Part shown: in pieces, positions 5,000 through 13,739 of the stretch
How the letters are laid out: every line of letters starts with the position of its first letter
Numbering within the stretch: the first letter of the stretch is position 1
Assembly: GCF_019703835.1 (NCBI RefSeq)
Contig: NZ_AP023054.1
Location: 2,021,580-2,045,579, forward strand
Direction: 5' to 3'
From: Thaumasiovibrio subtropicus
GTDB taxonomy: Bacteria > Pseudomonadota > Gammaproteobacteria > Enterobacterales > Vibrionaceae
Length of the DNA stretch: 24,000 nt
Position numbers and translations under genes: made by a program
Notes under the pieces: model-generated
What the model saw: the letters and a program-made list of their open reading frames with translations, nothing else
Database searches by the model: none
Told to the model about the DNA's origin: nothing

Positions 5000-6760
5000 T
5001 TAATACACGTCGCGCACATAACGCTTCTGTTTCTTAAGCTTGCTCACGTACTCGATTGCCTCATCAGATGACATTTCACCATGTGTTTCGATCACTTGAT
5101 GCAAGGCCTTATCCACATCTTTCGCCATGTAGTAAGCATCGCCACAAACGAAGAAGTAACCACCACGCTCCAACCACGCGAACAGTTCAGCACCCGCTTC
5201 AATCATCTTATCCTGAACATAAATCTTCTCCGCCTGATCGCGCGAAAAAGCGAGGTCTAAGCGAGTTAACACCCCCTTCTCTTGCAGTGCTTCGAGTTCC
5301 TCACGATAGATAAAGTCAGTAGCACTGTTGCGGTCACCAAAGATTAACCAATTATCGCCCGGCGATGCTTGTACCTCACGCTCTTCAAGGAAAGAACGGA
5401 ACGGTGCAATTCCCGTACCCGGACCGACCATAATCATAGGTGCGTTGTCATCTTCCGGCACAGCAAAGTTCTTATTCGGAGCAAAATAGCACGGTACCGT
5501 GTCGCCTTCATCGACGAGGTCGGCTAACCAAGTCGAGCAGGTGCCATGGTACTCACGATCGTCGCGTGCATAGCGAACACTACCAATCGTTAAATGCACC
5601 TCATCTTCATGTTTATTCAGGCTCGAAGAGATAGAATAAGCCCGTGGCGCTATCGGCTTCAGGAGCGAGAGAATCTCAGCCAGAGACAAGGTGACACCCG
5701 GATACTGTCGTAGCAAATCAAGAATGTCTTTCCCCCACAGATAATCGTTCAGTGCGCTGGTATCTTCATTACCTAATAAGGTAATCAGATGGTGATCACT
5801 GGCGCTTTCCGCGAGGGCTTTCACAAACTCTTTTGACGGTGTGCGGATATCTAAATACTGGGTGAAGATCTCTCGTAGGCTATGGTTTTCTCCATTCCAT
5901 GACGGCTTCTCTTCACCACTAAAATTAAAGTGCTCAAGGAAAGCTTGCACAAGGGCTGGCTGATTCTGAGGAATCACATTCAATGCATCCCCTGCTTTAT
6001 AGAACTCACCACTGCCTTCCAAAGAAATTTCATAGTGAACAATCTCTTTACTCGATCCCGGCTGGTTCAAAACGCGCTTATGCTTGAGCTTCGCAAGCAG
6101 TGGCTGCTTACGACTGTACTTAGATTTCGCCTTTGGGGCGCTGCCCCCCGATGCCGTCGCTGCCTCACCATCATCGCCCTTGTCAGCGATGCCCGGCAAC
6201 GTAGCTATCATCCAATCTTCTGCAGGTTGCTCGAAATCGATATCGCAATCAACGCGCGGGGTGATACGGGTTGCCCCCAATGCTTCTAATCGTTGATCCC
6301 ACTCTTTACCTGCAAGACAGAACTCATCGTAGCTTGTGTCTCCCAGCGCCAACACTGAAAAGAAAGTGCCATCGAGTTTAGGCGCGTTGTCAGACGACAT
6401 GGTTTGCCACAATGTCTCTGCATTATCTGGATGCTCACCTTCACCATAGGTACTCGTCACAATCAGCACGCGCGACGATTTCACAAAGATTTGTGCATCG
6501 ACATCGTCCATATCATGCACAGTCGCCACCATGCCATATTCTTTCGCTTTTTCAGCCGTATCATAAGCAACACTCTCAGCATTGCCGGTTTGCGATCCAT
6601 ACAAAATCGTTAACGCCTTAACCTGTGGCTTAGTCTCAGCATGTACGACCGACTCTTCTTTCACTAACAGGCGCGAGTGTAGCCCCGAAAAAAAGCCTGC
6701 AAGCCATGTTTTTTGATCGTCGTTAAACGGAATATCTTGTGGCAAATGAGGTACTTTCAT
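5000..6760 (-). CDS. CysJ-like diflavin reductase (flavodoxin-like FMN domain plus FAD/NADPH ferredoxin-reductase-type domain)
   Basis: FMN motifs ILYGSQTGNAESVA, LIVTSTYGEGEHPDNA and FSVLALGDTSYDEFC. FAD/NADPH motifs RAYSISSS, GTCSTWL, MVGPGTGIAPFRSF, YVQDKM, FFVCGD and a C-terminal RYVRDVY. The N-terminus DDQKTWLAGFFSGL resembles the CysJ N-terminal segment. The ATG at 6760 has AGGAAG 5 nt upstream. It lies 30 bp downstream of the gltB-like stop on the same strand. Confidence 0.9.
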   Translation of the reverse strand: MKVPHLPQDIPFNDDQKTWLAGFFSGLHSRLLVKEESVVHAETKPQVKALTILYGSQTGNAESVAYDTAEKAKEYGMVATVHDMDDVDAQIFVKSSRVLIVTSTYGEGEHPDNAETLWQTMSSDNAPKLDGTFFSVLALGDTSYDEFCLAGKEWDQRLEALGATRITPRVDCDIDFEQPAEDWMIATLPGIADKGDDGEAATASGGSAPKAKSKYSRKQPLLAKLKHKRVLNQPGSSKEIVHYEISLEGSGEFYKAGDALNVIPQNQPALVQAFLEHFNFSGEEKPSWNGENHSLREIFTQYLDIRTPSKEFVKALAESASDHHLITLLGNEDTSALNDYLWGKDILDLLRQYPGVTLSLAEILSLLKPIAPRAYSISSSLNKHEDEVHLTIGSVRYARDDREYHGTCSTWLADLVDEGDTVPCYFAPNKNFAVPEDDNAPMIMVGPGTGIAPFRSFLEEREVQASPGDNWLIFGDRNSATDFIYREELEALQEKGVLTRLDLAFSRDQAEKIYVQDKMIEAGAELFAWLERGGYFFVCGDAYYMAKDVDKALHQVIETHGEMSSDEAIEYVSKLKKQKRYVRDVY

Positions 6761-6790: not shown

Positions 6791-9700
6791 CTAGGCGCTT
6801 TGGGCTTTTGCAGTTTGCTGACTCGCAGCCTGCGCTTTCTCTTGCTCAATCTCTTCCCGGATCACATCGGCAAAGGTATGGCAATACAGTGTCGCCATAC
6901 GTTGAGCAAGCGGCTCAATCTGTTGTAGCTGTTTCTGGATCTCTTGCTCACGCGCAATGATCCAAACGGATGTCCCTCGCGAATGGGTATCAGTCACATC
7001 GCGACGTGCTAGCGAAGTTTTGTAATCAACAACACGTTTGTGGGCGAGCAGTACAGACAACTCCTCATCACGATAGTTAGAGACCGCCTCCTTCACGTCT
7101 TTCAACAACGTATCAAGTAGCTTCTTGTCACGAAGTTCAAAGAGACGTTTCACTAAGCGCGACTGTTGTACTTCACATTCACTTTGCGAGGAAACAAGTT
7201 GATGCGCGCGGTGTAATACACCACTTTGCGTCAGCAAATCGAAGATCAGCACCGTGTCCATATCGCCATATTGCGGACTCAAGCCATCGGATAAGGCCTC
7301 GCCACTTTCATAGGCAAGGTGGACACTTTCAATCAAACGATTCGCTTCACCGGCAATCAACTCTTCTAGCATTTTTTTGCGTGAGTGCGTTTTAAGAATA
7401 CTGTCAGGATGCTGGCTCTGAGTGAGCGCGAGCGGGAACACCAGCGTGAATAGCGTGCGGCTTGTAGCCCAATCATCAAGCAGTGCTTTGGCTGTCGGTG
7501 ACTGTGTGAAACGGACGTGCTCTTCAAGGTGCCATTTTAGCGCCTGCTCATAGCCTTCATTGTGTTCGATCAAAGGTAACGCCGTGACAGAATCTTCACT
7601 GCAACGCGCAGCAAAACTACCATCGACATCATATTGATACGCCACGCCACCAGACATACCGTTACCAAAGCCTTTACCATAATCACCTAAGTTGATCACG
7701 CTGCCGTTCGTCATGTATTCGCAACAGAAATCACCGACACCTTCGACAACTGCCACTGCGCCAGAGTTACGCACTGCAAAGCGGTCACCCGCTTCACCTT
7801 GGACAAATATCTGACCACCGGTTGCCCCAAACAGCGCAAAGTTACCAATCAGGACATTCTTACCTGTCTCTAGCGCGCCGCCACCCGGCGAACGCACGAC
7901 GATATGACCGCCACTGGATCCTTTGCCGACCCCATCATTACAGACACCCGTGTGTTCCATAATGATGCCGGAGTTATTGAATGCGCCATAACTTTGACCT
8001 GCGCTACCATGGGTTCTGACCTTAACAGACTCAGGTGCAAGGAAACGTCGACCATTGGCGGACGTAAAGATTGAAGGATGCGACTGAGCGTTGACGCATA
8101 CATCGCCCGCTTCACCTTTTCGACCTTGGGTCGCGTAGCCGTTGCCGTAATTTAAGAAACGCTCGACATCGATGGAGAGTTGCCCACCTGTCGATTTGTT
8201 ACGGTTATTGAGCTTCACGCTCTCAAGTTCAATTTGCGCCACTTCCGCGGTGAAGTAGGACTCGAAAAGCGCATCGATAAAGTGTTGATCTGGCGTGAAA
8301 TCGGCTTCTAGATAAACAGGTTTCGCGACCTTAACCAGATCAACCGGGCGTAACAGGCCTGTCACATCTAAACGGCCAACAATGCTGTGGTGATTGGCTA
8401 AATGCAGAAGTTCTGTTCGACCACGGATTTCACGTAAGCTGCAATAGCCTAGCGCGGCAAGGATTTCACGAACCTCATGGGCGACATTTAAGAAGTACTG
8501 CGCCAGCGCTCGGGGATCACCTTGATAGAGCTCTGGGTTGGTGGTCAATCCGGCAGGACACTTGACGTTACAGTTCTTCGCCATCACACATTTGAGCATC
8601 ATCAGGGCGGTTGTACCGAACTCGAAGGAATCGCCCCCCATAATGGCAGACTTAATTACATCCATGCCGGTTTGGTGTGCGTTTGAGCAGCGCAATACCA
8701 CTTTGTCGCGCAAGCCGTTTTCGCTCAACGCTTGATGTACTTCAGCAATCCCGATTTCTGCGGCGCGACCCGTATTTTTCAAACTGGTTACCGCGGCAGC
8801 CCCCGTTCCCCCGGTGTTACCCGCTACGTTAATGACATCGGCCCCGGCTTTCGCAACACCCACCGCAATCGTACCAATCCCTTCCGAAGAGACCAGTTTC
8901 ACAATCACTTTTACACGCGCCGCTTTTGCGTCATGGATCAACTGGCCCAAGTCTTCAATGGAGTAAGTATCATGATGAGGAGGGGGACTCACCAGCTCGA
9001 CGCCCGGCGTACCGCCACGTGCAGCAGCAATCTCTACCGTCACTTTCGGGGCGGGTAGCTGGCCACCCTCACCCGGTTTTGCCCCTTGGGCAATCTTAAT
9101 CTCAATCTCTTGAAGTTGTGGATCAGCAAGGTAGCCTACCCATACCCCAAAGCGCCCTGAAGCAAACTGCTTGATCTTACTCGATTTAATCGAGTTATAT
9201 CGGCTCGAGTGCTCGCCACCCTCACCACTGTTACTCATGGCGCCCGCAATGTTCGTGCCTTGCGCGACAGCAATATGTGCATTGGCATTCAACGCGCCGT
9301 GACTCATCGCGCCAGAGGCCAGTGTCGGTGTAATGAGGTGCGCAGGTTCAACCTCATTAATAGCAAGTGGTGTTTTTGCTTGGCGAACCTTAGATAAGAA
9401 AACTGCAAGACGTTCGTTCGCAAGGATGACGACCTTGTCGAACTCAATCGCTATGTCGGTGAGATGATCTTGCCAAACTCGCTCAATCGCCGCTTTGAGT
9501 AATTGCGGCTCACGCTGCGTGAGCGCCAACGCAAATCGGCTTTCCCCCAGCGCCTCTACTGTAATGCCCTGCCAAAGATAATTGACGTTACCTTCTCGAT
9601 GGAAACGGTCGAGTAACTTCACGACGTCATCAACACTGTTAGCCGCACTAAAATCGAGTGGCAACAGCAGAATGTCACGCAAGGCTGCCGGACGTGTCTC

Positions 9701-12310
9701 ACGCTCGCTGTACAAGTTGCTCGTAAAAGCGCGGTAGGATGGCGTAATAGCAAACTCATCAATCTGCTCTGGGGTACGTTTATCAAAGCCTTTATCTTTG
9801 TAATCGACGTCTTCACCCACAAACTCACTGGTTTTATCTAGGGCAATTTCCGCTTGGTCAGCACTGGCATCCGCATACTGTACCGACTCTTGCGTCATGT
9901 TAATGTATTCACGTACCGCCGTATTACCAAAACTGTGCCCCGCACCATCTTGACGTTCTTTGAACAAACCGAGGAGTGGGATCTGATTTTCTTCATTGAT
10001 TGCTAGGGCTTTGAAGTGCCATTTCGCCGCACTCCAAGCGAGATCATCAAACTGCGCACCACCCACCGGGGAACTTATGTTAGGGAAGTATGCTTTAAGG
10101 CCATCCGAATCTGAATCCAAAAAGTTGGACTCAAAGAACTCACCACCAATGTAACTTTCCGCAGTACAAAGACCAAACTTACCCATGGTCTTCATCAAGG
10201 ACTTTTCGACCGCTTTCTGGAAGTTATTTAGTCCTTTCTCAACCGTTTGGTTATTCGATAACGTTTGCGCCCGATGGTAAACAGAAAGTGGGCAAACCGC
10301 TGACGCACCAAAACCAAGTAAACAAGCAATGTCGTGGCTACTTGCCGCCTGCCCCGTGAGATAGACCAAGCTGGTATTAAAACGAAGGCCTTTCTGAATT
10401 AAGCGTTGGTTTAATGCGGCGACGGTCAAGATGGCAGGCAACGCCGCGTACTCTTGGCTAATTTGCTTATCACTGACTACCACGATCCCAACGCGACGAC
10501 GTGCAGCATCTTCAACCTGATCGCACAGGGCAGCAATTGCCTCTTCAACACGAACAGCATTGTCTTCACGGCTGTTAAGCGTCGGTTTAAACAAGGCATC
10601 GTAAGTTTCCACGCCGATCTGTGTTTGCGTGAATATCTGCTCTAACTGTTGTGGCTGCAAAATGGGTGATTGCAGTACTAACTGCACACTGTCCCGAGGA
10701 CTAAAGTTGGGTTTGGCCCCCAGAGCAACGCGTAAAGTCATACCATCTGACTCACGTAAGGAATCCAGTGGCGGGTTGGTGACCTGAGCAAATCGCTGAC
10801 TGAAGTATTTCGACATGCCGCCTTCTTCATCAGTCAGTACATTCGGCGCGAGGCCAAAACCCATTGCTGAGATTTTTTCAGCGGCATTCTCAATCATGGG
10901 GTCTAAAAAGAACTTAAAGCTCTCTTGGTTCAAAGAGTAAGCCACATGACGGCTATAGGTTGAGAACTGGGTGTTATCTTGAATCTTTTCGATACCAACA
11001 GGTTCGATATCATCAAGCGTAATGCGCGCAGAAGCCAACAAGCCTTTATAATCACGCGCCTTGGCTAGGGTTTCTAGGATTTCATTGGTTTCATAGCTGC
11101 GGCCTGTTGCGTGATCGAAGTAGATCATGCCCCCCGCCTGAATACGACCGTAGCGTGTCACCGACTCTGGTGGAAAATCTATCTGTCCGGATTCGCTCAT
11201 CACCGCGAGGTAGCGTTCTGTCTCTACACTGCGCAACGGACGCAGCCCCAAGCGGTCGAGACGCGCCCCCACTTTCTGACCATCAGAGAAGATCAATGCT
11301 GCCGGGCCATCATTTTTTTCTTCCGATAAGCTGAAGTACTCCAACATGGCACGCACATCATCAGACATCGATGGATCGTTTTCCCATGCAGGTGGCATCA
11401 TCGCCAACACAGCGGTGACAATGTCCATCTCATCTTCAACCACACGACGCGCTAAGGTCTGATCCAAACGGGCTGAATCAGATTGCCCCTTTGGAAAGAT
11501 CACCTTTTTGTGTTGCTGGCGCGCGATAGCATCTTCGCTTAAACGGTTTTTCTTATCCGTATTTAACTCACCATTGTGCGCCATACGACGAAATGGCTGC
11601 GCCATCATCGTGGCCGGTGCGGTATTAGTCGAAAAACGCGTATGGAAGAAAAGCGTGGTCACTTTATGTTCTGGGTGCGATAAGTCGGCAAAAAATGGCA
11701 CCACTTCACCCGAATTCAAACGCCCTTTATACACCTGTGTTTTGGAGCTCATTGAAAGGGGGTAAAACCCTTCTAAATCACCATCAGTAAACCCGGTTGA
11801 CTCCAATTCGGAGAGAGCAAGGTTAATGGCATTTTCAAACTGTACTGCATCTGCGTAGGCATCACCGCGAAGAAAGACAACCTGATGGATGGTCTGCTGC
11901 GCTTGTTGCGATGCTTCATTCACAGCATCGAGATTGACAGGCACTTCACGCCATTGGTCAATCTCGAATTTAAATGCGGCGAACGTGCTTTCAATAAGCT
12001 GCTTAGTTTTGTCCGTTTGACTCGCATCAAAAGGAAAGAAGAAGTTGGCTACCCCGAAGTCGCCCTTTTCAAGAGTGGGCTTGGCCGTTAAAAAGCGGTA
12101 GAAGTTGACCGAAAGATCGATATTGACGCCAGCACCATCGCCAATACCTTCGGCGTTCATGCCGCCACGGTGTGGAATAGTGCATAAAGCTTCATGAGAT
12201 AGTTGCAGTAGTTCGTGAGTTTGCTCACCGGTTTTATCCGTGATGAAACCCACTCCACAACTCGAGTGCTCATGCTCGCGATCATACAGCGAGCGATAAT
12301 TCTGATTCAT
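6791..12310 (-). CDS. gltB: Glutamate synthase large (alpha) subunit homolog, atypically long (about 1840 aa), with an internal insertion and a 210-aa C-terminal extension
   Basis: All four GltS-alpha domains are present. Ntn amidotransferase: SS-CGVGFITDK...PHRGG. A central domain follows. FMN domain: KIAQGAKPGEGGQLP, SPPPHHDTYSIEDL, GADVINVAGNTGGTGAA, and a Cys triad KCVMAKNCNVKCPAG. GXGXG domain: GSAGQSYGAF, NDGVGKGSSGG, GATGGQIFVQGEAGDRFAVRNSG. The likely start is the ATG at 12310 (MNQNYRSLYDREHEHSS|C) with AAGGAA 8 nt upstream. The track ORF extends to 12400. Confidence 0.9.
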   Translation of the reverse strand: MNQNYRSLYDREHEHSSCGVGFITDKTGEQTHELLQLSHEALCTIPHRGGMNAEGIGDGAGVNIDLSVNFYRFLTAKPTLEKGDFGVANFFFPFDASQTDKTKQLIESTFAAFKFEIDQWREVPVNLDAVNEASQQAQQTIHQVVFLRGDAYADAVQFENAINLALSELESTGFTDGDLEGFYPLSMSSKTQVYKGRLNSGEVVPFFADLSHPEHKVTTLFFHTRFSTNTAPATMMAQPFRRMAHNGELNTDKKNRLSEDAIARQQHKKVIFPKGQSDSARLDQTLARRVVEDEMDIVTAVLAMMPPAWENDPSMSDDVRAMLEYFSLSEEKNDGPAALIFSDGQKVGARLDRLGLRPLRSVETERYLAVMSESGQIDFPPESVTRYGRIQAGGMIYFDHATGRSYETNEILETLAKARDYKGLLASARITLDDIEPVGIEKIQDNTQFSTYSRHVAYSLNQESFKFFLDPMIENAAEKISAMGFGLAPNVLTDEEGGMSKYFSQRFAQVTNPPLDSLRESDGMTLRVALGAKPNFSPRDSVQLVLQSPILQPQQLEQIFTQTQIGVETYDALFKPTLNSREDNAVRVEEAIAALCDQVEDAARRRVGIVVVSDKQISQEYAALPAILTVAALNQRLIQKGLRFNTSLVYLTGQAASSHDIACLLGFGASAVCPLSVYHRAQTLSNNQTVEKGLNNFQKAVEKSLMKTMGKFGLCTAESYIGGEFFESNFLDSDSDGLKAYFPNISSPVGGAQFDDLAWSAAKWHFKALAINEENQIPLLGLFKERQDGAGHSFGNTAVREYINMTQESVQYADASADQAEIALDKTSEFVGEDVDYKDKGFDKRTPEQIDEFAITPSYRAFTSNLYSERETRPAALRDILLLPLDFSAANSVDDVVKLLDRFHREGNVNYLWQGITVEALGESRFALALTQREPQLLKAAIERVWQDHLTDIAIEFDKVVILANERLAVFLSKVRQAKTPLAINEVEPAHLITPTLASGAMSHGALNANAHIAVAQGTNIAGAMSNSGEGGEHSSRYNSIKSSKIKQFASGRFGVWVGYLADPQLQEIEIKIAQGAKPGEGGQLPAPKVTVEIAAARGGTPGVELVSPPPHHDTYSIEDLGQLIHDAKAARVKVIVKLVSSEGIGTIAVGVAKAGADVINVAGNTGGTGAAAVTSLKNTGRAAEIGIAEVHQALSENGLRDKVVLRCSNAHQTGMDVIKSAIMGGDSFEFGTTALMMLKCVMAKNCNVKCPAGLTTNPELYQGDPRALAQYFLNVAHEVREILAALGYCSLREIRGRTELLHLANHHSIVGRLDVTGLLRPVDLVKVAKPVYLEADFTPDQHFIDALFESYFTAEVAQIELESVKLNNRNKSTGGQLSIDVERFLNYGNGYATQGRKGEAGDVCVNAQSHPSIFTSANGRRFLAPESVKVRTHGSAGQSYGAFNNSGIIMEHTGVCNDGVGKGSSGGHIVVRSPGGGALETGKNVLIGNFALFGATGGQIFVQGEAGDRFAVRNSGAVAVVEGVGDFCCEYMTNGSVINLGDYGKGFGNGMSGGVAYQYDVDGSFAARCSEDSVTALPLIEHNEGYEQALKWHLEEHVRFTQSPTAKALLDDWATSRTLFTLVFPLALTQSQHPDSILKTHSRKKMLEELIAGEANRLIESVHLAYESGEALSDGLSPQYGDMDTVLIFDLLTQSGVLHRAHQLVSSQSECEVQQSRLVKRLFELRDKKLLDTLLKDVKEAVSNYRDEELSVLLAHKRVVDYKTSLARRDVTDTHSRGTSVWIIAREQEIQKQLQQIEPLAQRMATLYCHTFADVIREEIEQEKAQAASQQTAKAQSA

Positions 12311-12434
12311 TGGATCGTTTCCTTGATTGCTTGCAGCGCAAGGGCTACAGGTCCCTTTGGCATGTATCACTACAGTGCCGAAGCCTTTCGCTTTGCTCAC
12401 ACAACAAAGATCTTCCTGACCTTGTTACGCAAAT

Positions 12435-12455
12435 ATGAATGATAACAATTATCAT
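12435..12455. promoter_or_regulatory. Fur-box-like palindrome upstream of the gltB-like/cysJ-like operon
   Basis: ATGATAA-CAA-TTATCAT is a perfect 7-3-7 inverted repeat at 12439-12455. By hand alignment, 12435-12453 matches the 19-bp consensus GATAATGATAATCATTATC at 14/19. It lies about 125-145 bp upstream of the 12310 start. On the minus strand it overlaps a possible -10 (TTGCTT-16 nt-ATAATT). Confidence 0.5.
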
Positions 12456-12640
12456 GAGCAATAAAGATAAGCAAGTTTTCTGTGATTTAGATCGTCTTTT
12501 GTTTACAAGTTGATCACAAAACAACCAAGAATAAAAAGTCGATAAAAGGGAATAATTAGTAGGAAAGTGGGAGGTACATCAAAGGGGGCCAATCGTGGTG
12601 TCATAGCGAATAGCAGTGCAATACAATGCAACCCTTCAAG

Positions 12641-12693
12641 AAGGCAAACAAAAACACTTCAACAACATTGCATCAAAGCATGTTGTTGAAGTG
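12641..12693 (-). terminator. Orphan terminator-like hairpin in the intergenic region (minus-strand orientation)
   Basis: Perfect 14-bp stem CACTTCAACAACAT (12655-12668) / ATGTTGTTGAAGTG (12680-12693) with an 11-nt loop. On the minus strand it is followed by TTTTGTTTGCCTT. No annotated minus-strand gene ends here. Confidence 0.45.
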
Positions 12694-12902: not shown

Positions 12903-13739
12903 ATGAGCACGCTTTTAGACATCTGTGAAACATTGTTTTTACCTAATGACTGCGACATCAAGCCAACAACGCCAAGTTTGGAGAAAACAGGCCTGCAAAG
13001 TCATGCCGTAGCGCACGTCTCTTTATCTCCACTGTCTAAAAATGCGCAATTTTCTGCCCTCCTCTCGGAGTTGAACACCTTGGGTTTTGACCAATGCCTG
13101 TTTACTGCCGTGCCCACTTACGCGACGAAAGTAAAAGCAAAACCACATTTTTACACAAACTTCGATGCCGATTGGATGGCCTACTACATTGATAAGCACT
13201 ATCACCTTAACGACAAAGCCCTGCAACACTGCCTAGCCCAGCCTGACACCCCGTTAATATGGCCTTCCAACAAAATGCTCAATGGCTATAACGCGAAAGA
13301 GAGAATTGTACGCTTGGAAGCTGAAAGCGCCGGCCTTGCTGTCGGGACAACCATTCCCTGTCAACTTCCCGGTGGGCTCGTCAGCACGTTCAGCCTTAGC
13401 TTTGATGGGACAGCCGAGCAATTCAAGGCTCAGTTTCATCAACATGAAAACATGCTAAAAACCATCGCACATGCCACCAGTCACGCCTTACTCGATGCAA
13501 ATCCACGCCTTTTTACCCAGCCATTTAGCACCATTCTCTCTCCTCGAGAGAAAGATACATTGCTGTGGTTAAGCGAAGGATTTACCTATCAGCAAATCGC
13601 GCAAAAGCTCGGCGTTGGCGAAAGCACCGTGCGCAAACATGTTAGTCAGATTCTGCGTAAATTGAATGCGCGTAACACCGCCCAAGCGTGTGCGATGGCC
13701 ATCCGCTGGCAACTCATCGATACCGGACTGATACGGTAG
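12903..13739 (+). CDS. LuxR-family transcriptional regulator: N-terminal autoinducer-binding-like domain plus C-terminal LuxR/FixJ HTH ('solo', no luxI in window)
   Basis: C-terminus LSPREKDTLLWLSEGFTYQQIAQKLGVGESTVRKHVSQILRKLNARNTAQ is a canonical LuxR-type HTH. The N-terminal region DADWMAYYIDKHYHLNDKALQHC...PLIW has the W/Y/D/W spacing of TraR/LuxR ligand-pocket residues (W57, Y61, D70, W85 equivalents). The RBS is weak, so the start is uncertain. Confidence 0.85.
   Translation: MSTLLDICETLFLPNDCDIKPTTPSLEKTGLQSHAVAHVSLSPLSKNAQFSALLSELNTLGFDQCLFTAVPTYATKVKAKPHFYTNFDADWMAYYIDKHYHLNDKALQHCLAQPDTPLIWPSNKMLNGYNAKERIVRLEAESAGLAVGTTIPCQLPGGLVSTFSLSFDGTAEQFKAQFHQHENMLKTIAHATSHALLDANPRLFTQPFSTILSPREKDTLLWLSEGFTYQQIAQKLGVGESTVRKHVSQILRKLNARNTAQACAMAIRWQLIDTGLIR

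Follow-up and report, generated by a model that had tools for sequence, protein, structure and literature searches.

The window analysed here, a stretch of 24,000 nucleotides, comes from Thaumasiovibrio subtropicus (hereafter the host), whose genome consists of two chromosomes and a 35-kb plasmid (5.56 Mb, 47% GC). On the minus strand the window carries a two-gene operon encoding a long GltB-like glutamate synthase alpha subunit and, 30 bp downstream of it, a CysJ-like diflavin reductase. An intergenic region of 590 bp (39% GC) separates the gltB-like gene from a divergent LuxR-type gene on the plus strand. Within it, the sequence reads as a perfect 7-3-7 palindrome, ATGATAA-CAA-TTATCAT, at window positions 12439-12455, and this palindrome occurs as a single copy in the 5.56-Mb genome. 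The genes and the palindromic element are as follows.

5000-6760, minus strand: CysJ-like diflavin reductase, 586 aa (Pfam Flavodoxin_1, FAD_binding_1, NAD_binding_1)
6791-12310, minus strand: long GltB-like glutamate synthase alpha subunit, 1839 aa (Pfam GATase_2, Glu_syn_central, Glu_synthase, GXGXG)
12438-12456, unstranded: Fur box, 19-bp dyad AATGATAAC-A-ATTATCATG, palindrome core at 12439-12455
12903-13739, plus strand: LuxR-type gene, divergent neighbour

The palindrome matches known Fur box consensus sequences

A first-pass annotation had described a Fur-box-like palindrome at 12435-12455, a range that contains the palindrome given above, and had counted 14/19 matches to the 19-bp E. 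coli Fur consensus GATAATGATAATCATTATC. Using the same consensus, we obtained 14/19 in the register chosen there and 15/19 in a register shifted by 6 bp; genome-wide, 77 of 11.1 million strand-positions reach at least 15/19. The annotation had further placed the element about 130 bp upstream of the gltB-like start and over a minus-strand -10-like element. Both statements agree with our results: the distance from the box centre to the ATG at 12310, a start codon conserved among orthologues, is 134 bp, and -10-like hexamers are indeed overlapped by the box.

We also compared the dyad with two further consensus forms. Against the V. cholerae Fur box consensus, AATGATAATNATTATCATT (PMC7641913), window positions 12438-12456 match at 16 of 18. 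A match this good occurs at 22 sites in the genome, the present one included; 19 of them are intergenic, in a genome of which about 15% is intergenic. The 7-1-7 Fur core TGATAATnATTATCA is matched at 13/14 by the palindrome; 20 such sites occur in the genome, where about 3 are expected. The host itself encodes Fur (PF01475, 157 bits), and the protein shares about 88% identity with V. cholerae Fur (PDB 2W57), from which its DNA-binding domain hardly differs. Use of the Vibrio consensus is justified by this closeness of the two Fur proteins. A Zur box, that is, a dyad of the GAAATGTTATAATATAACATTTC type, was tried as a candidate and rejected, its best match being 13/23; clear TGTTATA-type Zur-like sites are present elsewhere in the genome.

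A genome-trained matrix groups the site with iron-gene promoters

We built a symmetric 21-bp Fur matrix from the host genome, with intergenic consensus hits as the seed and four iterations, from which the target was always excluded. With this matrix, which is consensus-seeded and hence biased by construction toward consensus-like sequences, the target scored 18.6 bits, ranking 21-22 genome-wide (5.56 Mb). A second matrix register, 6 bp off, reached 17.5 bits.

12434-12460, unstranded: span of two overlapping 21-bp matrix registers, 12434-12454 (18.6 bits) and 12440-12460 (17.5 bits)

Each register lies 3 bp from the dyad centre, one per side, as is expected of one symmetric Fur box, and the span 12434-12460 is likely to be the Fur footprint. 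Under a second-order Markov model of intergenic DNA, 0.5 sites per Mb are obtained at the target's score, and 28 of 4644 upstream regions of 400 bp each (0.6%) attain it. Scoring against the genome background had been proposed as a check on the original observation; when it was run, the target stood out, at rank ~21 within the band of classic Fur targets.

The genes facing the top 28 sites include sufA, feoB, isochorismate synthase, enterochelin esterase and a Mn/Fe ABC transporter binding protein, as well as katG, a Fe/Mn superoxide dismutase and the alternative ribonucleotide reductase alpha chain. Four AraC-type regulators and nine TonB-dependent receptors are faced by sites in the same set. 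Two sites, at ranks 17 and 31, have no facing ORF in the crude gene calls and lie just upstream of RyhB, which we located via Rfam, independently of the matrix. At ranks 18-28, around the target, the sites flank five TonB receptors, sod and the esterase, and because of these neighbours in rank we place the target in the true-positive band.

We further noticed strong Fur boxes facing genes at C2:849028-851280, C1:1375073-1376272, C1:2135039-2135770 and C2:144495-145628. The proteins at these four loci are the alternative ribonucleotide reductase alpha chain, a quinone-dependent dihydroorotate dehydrogenase, a nitroreductase-like flavoprotein and a YpdA-like flavin oxidoreductase, and they are candidates for further low-iron substitutes in the host regulon.

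The Fur box lies over the predicted -10 region of the operon

Comparison of the orthologous upstream regions, together with inspection by eye, outlines a putative promoter, an upstream element and a leader on the operon side of the intergenic region.

12448-12453, minus strand: predicted -10 hexamer GATAAT, from alignments, conserved in most Vibrio orthologues
12439-12447, minus strand: alternative extended -10, TG-T-TATCAT, found by eye, within the Fur box
12469-12474, minus strand: weak -35-like TTGCTT (TTGCCA in relatives), 15 nt upstream of GATAAT, from alignments
12482-12497, unstranded: CRP-site-like element TGTGATTTAGATCGTC, 13/16 to TGTGATCTAGATCACA
12308-12392, minus strand: untranslated leader with Shine-Dalgarno AAGGAAA and ATG, near-invariant in 13 Vibrio orthologues with diverged flanks
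12359-12379 and 12332-12349, minus strand: leader hairpins, with weak structural support

The extended -10 is specific to the host genome and the V. penaeicida group. The proposed promoter was not in the output of a sigma-70 scan because the scan required a spacer of 16-18 nt, and the spacer here is 15 nt. The Fur box would enclose both predicted -10 candidates, the classical layout for repression by occlusion. Further upstream, about 30 bp from the -10, the CRP-site-like element is kept as GCGATCTnAATCACA in at least 12 orthologous promoters, and other CRP-like intergenic sites similar to TGTGATTTAGATCGTC are present in the host genome. The element suggests an activator input, perhaps from cAMP-CRP, besides Fur.

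The 85-nt leader is non-coding, since its indels are not multiples of three. An Rfam scan of 12250-12650 returned no real match for it, the sole hit being a chance snoRNA at E = 5.9, and the leader is therefore not a known riboswitch. With a covariance model, no further copy of the leader was found in the host genome. The RNAalifold consensus is weak (-7.9 kcal/mol, one compensatory pair), and the hairpin at 12332-12349 varies between A-U, G-U and G-C among orthologues. The leader may be an operon-specific regulatory RNA or a binding site for a protein or sRNA. A sigma-54 promoter at the leader GGCAC was considered and dismissed by eye, the -12 GC element being absent.

Two other features of the region were noted. 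Insertions of ~170 nt in V. nigripulchritudo and ~45 nt in V. sonorensis separate the conserved 3' part of the leader (ATGCC...) from its 5' part (GGCAC) and the promoter, as would be expected if the leader halves pair over a variable loop. A terminator-like hairpin at 12642-12693, upstream of the gltB-like promoter, has a perfect stem of ~14 bp and an 11-nt loop followed by a minus-strand T-run; it would serve as an insulator against minus-strand read-in or stand at the end of a small RNA.

Fur boxes recur upstream of orthologous operons in Vibrionaceae

A DNA-level search of relatives with the intergenic region recovered the coding start and the leader and missed the box, and we therefore used protein-anchored upstream regions. 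The set consisted of 16 orthologues from a genome search and 16 named Vibrio, Thaumasiovibrio and related records, for each of which 400 bp upstream were scored. A box of at least 14.8 bits was present in 13 of 22 distinct Vibrionaceae upstream sequences, a fraction that is not a probability because the sequences are related. At the same threshold, the controls gave 1/22 for reversed sequences and 0/880 for shuffles. At least five of the placements of the box among Vibrionaceae are non-homologous. The boxes are listed here by genome, score and position.

V. penaeicida (2 strains), V. nigripulchritudo and Vibrio sp. S9_S30: 19.5 bits, position as in the host
V. kasasachensis and a relative: 14.8-17.0 bits, position as in the host
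Vibrio sp. D404a: 19.8 bits, 110-150 bp upstream of the shared -10
V. fortis: 16.8 bits, 110-150 bp upstream of the shared -10
V. mexicanus: 15.2 bits, 110-150 bp upstream of the shared -10
V. sonorensis: 23.8 bits, 110-150 bp upstream of the shared -10
Vibrio sp. UBA2441: 21.1 bits, -116 from the ATG
Two genomes of another genus: 22.0 bits, -111 and -115 from the ATG

In V. nigripulchritudo the box is displaced by the leader insertion of ~170 nt. The other neighbour is co-directional in V. fortis, V. mexicanus, V. sonorensis and Vibrio sp. D404a, so that in these four genomes the box has no alternative target. Part of the conservation seen in the set could be promoter-driven, since the left arm of the dyad, TGATAAT, doubles as the conserved -10. 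Weak boxes only, of 10-12.5 bits, were found in V. intestinalis, V. fluminensis and two others. The upstream region of Thaumasiovibrio occultus, from the host's GTDB genus, scored 5.7 bits and has no box. About 64 orthologues from Methylococcaceae, Verrucomicrobiota and Lentisphaeria were scored as well; these have no box and lie mostly below 7 bits. Given this distribution, the operon is widespread, and Fur control of it looks like an addition specific to Vibrionaceae. The initial hypothesis, built on one motif, now has a wider basis in the recurrence of boxes upstream of the orthologous operon.

Over its first 300 residues, the long GltB of the host is 82-83% identical to the proteins of V. 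penaeicida and V. nigripulchritudo, and 66% identical to that of T. occultus, the operon of which is also without the shared promoter. From these comparisons, the operon together with its regulatory region appears to have come from a Vibrio by horizontal transfer.

The long GltB is paired with a diflavin reductase instead of GltD

The long GltB and the canonical alpha subunit of GltBD share four domains and the Cys1 amidotransferase, and both have a triad of cysteines where the cluster sits. They differ in that the long protein is only ~36% identical to the host's GltB and has ~350 extra residues; relative to the host's canonical GltBs, it carries insertions at 817-973 and 1397-1423 and a C-terminal extension at 1665-1838. 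The spacing of the triad also differs, being CX5CX3C in the long GltB and CX5CX4C in canonical GltB. In the alignment the long triad, C1241-X5-C1247-X3-C1251, falls at the 3Fe-4S position, and it is probable that the long GltB keeps the 3Fe-4S site.

The partner subunits differ as well. Canonical GltB works with GltD, which has two 4Fe-4S clusters, whereas the long GltB is paired with a CysJ-like diflavin reductase. The operon reductase has the domain order of the CysJ/cytochrome P450 reductase family (flavodoxin, FAD, NADPH), and a Pfam scan of its 586 residues revealed no Fe-S domain. It is ~40% identical to the genomes' own CysJ-like copies and adjoins long gltB, never cysI. The first-pass annotation had envisaged an iron-sparing glutamate synthase that uses an iron-free reductase. 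The reductase half of that proposal is upheld by the lack of an Fe-S domain in the scan; the long GltB keeps its Cys triad, and the enzyme is for this reason better described as iron-poor than as iron-free. A completely iron-free enzyme had been entertained and was dropped, as the alignment revealed CX5CX3C, though CX5CX4C is absent. The expected saving is that of GltD's two 4Fe-4S clusters, roughly 8 of 11 Fe per protomer.

The reductase gene adjoins long gltB in 5/5 other genomes checked, which represent three phyla (Methylomonas fluvii, T. occultus, V. penaeicida, V. sonorensis and a Lentisphaeria MAG). Since the two genes are adjacent in all five, we regard the pair as a conserved module. 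We also observed that the module is widespread in methanotrophs, with about 60 Methylococcaceae loci. In the one genome of M. fluvii, one query (the host's GltD) found no GltD homologue at E <1e-40, a result that does not show absence. The chief glutamate synthase of M. fluvii, or of methanotrophs, may be the long enzyme. In the literature that we searched, which included few subscription journals, no enzyme composed of a glutamate synthase and a diflavin reductase is described.

Canonical gltBD genes lack Fur boxes and are candidate RyhB targets

Glutamate synthase is an abundant Fe-S enzyme. The host genome has two canonical gltB-gltD pairs (C1 3.117-3.131 Mb), and at the domain level canonical GltD carries Fer4_20. 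The upstream regions of canonical gltBD, scored with the matrix, gave 4.5 and 9.0 bits and have no Fur box. In V. cholerae, RyhB targets gltB1, and down-regulation of gltB has been called an iron-sparing strategy (PMC5511505). RyhB is present in the host and is itself Fur-boxed. Paired with the canonical gltB leaders, the 29-nt core of RyhB gave energies only in the top 9-11% of genes, a weak discrimination, and duplex prediction with the full 60 nt was uninformative (median -27 kcal/mol).

At the start of the canonical copy gltB_b (C1:3116970-3117000), we noticed within the ribosome-binding region the sequence CACUGGAAG, a perfect 9-nt complement of the conserved RyhB core CUUCCAGUG. This complementarity is consistent with RyhB repression, as for V. 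cholerae gltB1.

Weighing alternative explanations

The best explanation overall, to which we give a probability of about 70%, is that the dyad at 12438-12456 would be a functional Fur operator on a low-iron glutamate synthase operon. Its parts are not equally firm. Binding and repression by Fur at this site are strongly favoured by the sequence comparisons, while for an iron-sparing glutamate synthase as the physiological role we would put the chances at about even. A Fur box alone is no proof of iron-sparing, because Fur regulons include oxidative-stress genes. The box could therefore be real and the operon play another role, providing an oxidant-tolerant isozyme, changing reductant or flux under stress, or catalysing another reaction. 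The same matrix hits the katG and sod promoters, so the regulon mixes iron and oxidative-stress functions, and the long GltB has large lineage-specific insertions and a 175-aa C-terminal extension. M. fluvii, where no GltD was found with the host query and where the operon is without a Fur box, adds to this, implying an enzyme that is not intrinsically an iron-stress device. However, the long GltB keeps all four glutamate synthase domains, the N-terminal Cys and the cluster cysteines; in cofactors, the only clear departure from GltBD is that two 4Fe-4S clusters are missing; and the down-regulation of canonical gltB by RyhB is an established iron-sparing response (PMC5511505). We consider a role other than iron-sparing unlikely.

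Other readings would take Fur, or this operon, out of the explanation. The likeness to a Fur box might be a coincidence of an AT-rich promoter element in which GATAAT and the extended -10 form a chance dyad. The intergenic region is indeed only 39% GC, and TGATAATTAT is kept even where the full box scores poorly, as in V. intestinalis. Yet composition-preserving shuffles reached 14.8 bits in 0/880 cases and the host site scores 18.6; the right arm (12449-12455) is superfluous for a -10 but completes the dyad in the host and the V. penaeicida group; and in other lineages the strong boxes lie off the -10, at unrelated positions. Such a coincidence is improbable. It is even harder to assign the box to another target in the 590-bp region, be it the luxR-type gene (12903), an 89-codon ORF (12626) or an unannotated small RNA, although divergent genes flank the region, a promoter-like site lies on the plus strand at 12598-12627 and the terminator-like hairpin, here 12655-12693, suggests a second transcript nearby. 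Distances from the box are 134 bp to the gltB-like ATG and 459 bp to the luxR-type start, and in V. fortis, V. mexicanus, V. sonorensis and Vibrio sp. D404a, which have a different, co-directional neighbour, the box stays with the gltB-like operon. Least probable of all, in our estimate, is an operator for another regulator, either an unrelated dimeric repressor or a second, Zur-like paralogue of the Fur family. A second Fur-family gene is present (57 bits to PF01475), but the site groups with the iron-gene sites by both score and sequence.

A proposed Fur switch between two glutamate synthases

If the dyad is a Fur operator for a low-iron glutamate synthase, the following mechanism can be proposed. 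In iron-replete cells, Fe2+-Fur would occupy the -10/transcription-start region of the promoter of the long gltB/reductase operon and block RNA polymerase, probably as two dimers given the registers 6 bp apart. When iron is low, Fur would leave the DNA and the operon would be transcribed, probably with the assistance of the conserved CRP-like activator site. The product would be an NADPH-dependent glutamate synthase in which electrons reach the alpha subunit through the FAD and FMN of the CysJ-like reductase, bypassing the two [4Fe-4S] clusters of GltD and lowering the iron cost per protomer from ~11 to ~3 Fe. In parallel, derepressed RyhB would be expected to lower both canonical gltBD enzymes. 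Of this scheme, we infer from sequence that Fur occupies the site, where the promoter lies, which way the operon is regulated, what the enzyme catalyses and that RyhB takes part.

A wider version can be put forward more tentatively, with a little under an even chance of being right. Vibrios would use Fur to switch between the 11-Fe GltBD and an undescribed class of NADPH glutamate synthase with ~3 Fe, made up of the long alpha subunit and the CysJ-like diflavin reductase, which is maybe a housekeeping, Fur-independent enzyme in Methylococcaceae and which in Vibrio has a conserved, unclassified mRNA leader of its own. How nitrogen is assimilated once RyhB shuts down glutamate synthase has so far been without explanation. 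If the proposal is true, the few known iron-sparing swaps would be joined by one more, that of a glutamate synthase which is derepressed from Fur control and coupled to flavins. The swap would also make physiological sense of a hitherto undescribed enzyme architecture that ranges from vibrios to methanotrophs. In marine bacteria, for which both elements are limiting, it would connect the economies of iron and nitrogen.

Comparison with known Fur boxes and iron-sparing swaps

The dyad has the same sequence as Fur boxes of Vibrio and E. coli, with matches of 16/18, 15/19 and 13/14 to the three consensus forms. Like those boxes, it is AT-rich, lies over the predicted -10/start region and has paired registers 6 bp apart. 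It departs from the Vibrio and E. coli consensus in having C for T at the innermost position of one arm and one changed outer base. The gene that it faces encodes a nitrogen-assimilation enzyme and has no part in iron uptake. Judged by its sequence, the DNA element is an ordinary Fur box and the novelty is its target.

In the known iron-sparing swaps governed by Fur and RyhB, sodA replaces sodB, fumC replaces fumA, nrdHIEF replaces nrdAB, and flavodoxin replaces ferredoxin. No Fur-induced or low-iron form of glutamate synthase was found in the literature searched, in which few subscription journals were covered. The arrangement described here resembles the known swaps in that the iron-poor paralogue is Fur-boxed and the iron-rich paralogues are not, the latter being RyhB targets in V. 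cholerae at least. It also resembles them in its surroundings, as host Fur sites flank a sod and an alternative ribonucleotide reductase. It differs from them in that the enzyme is a glutamate synthase and in that the electron-donor subunit alone is replaced, with the alpha subunit probably keeping its 3 Fe.
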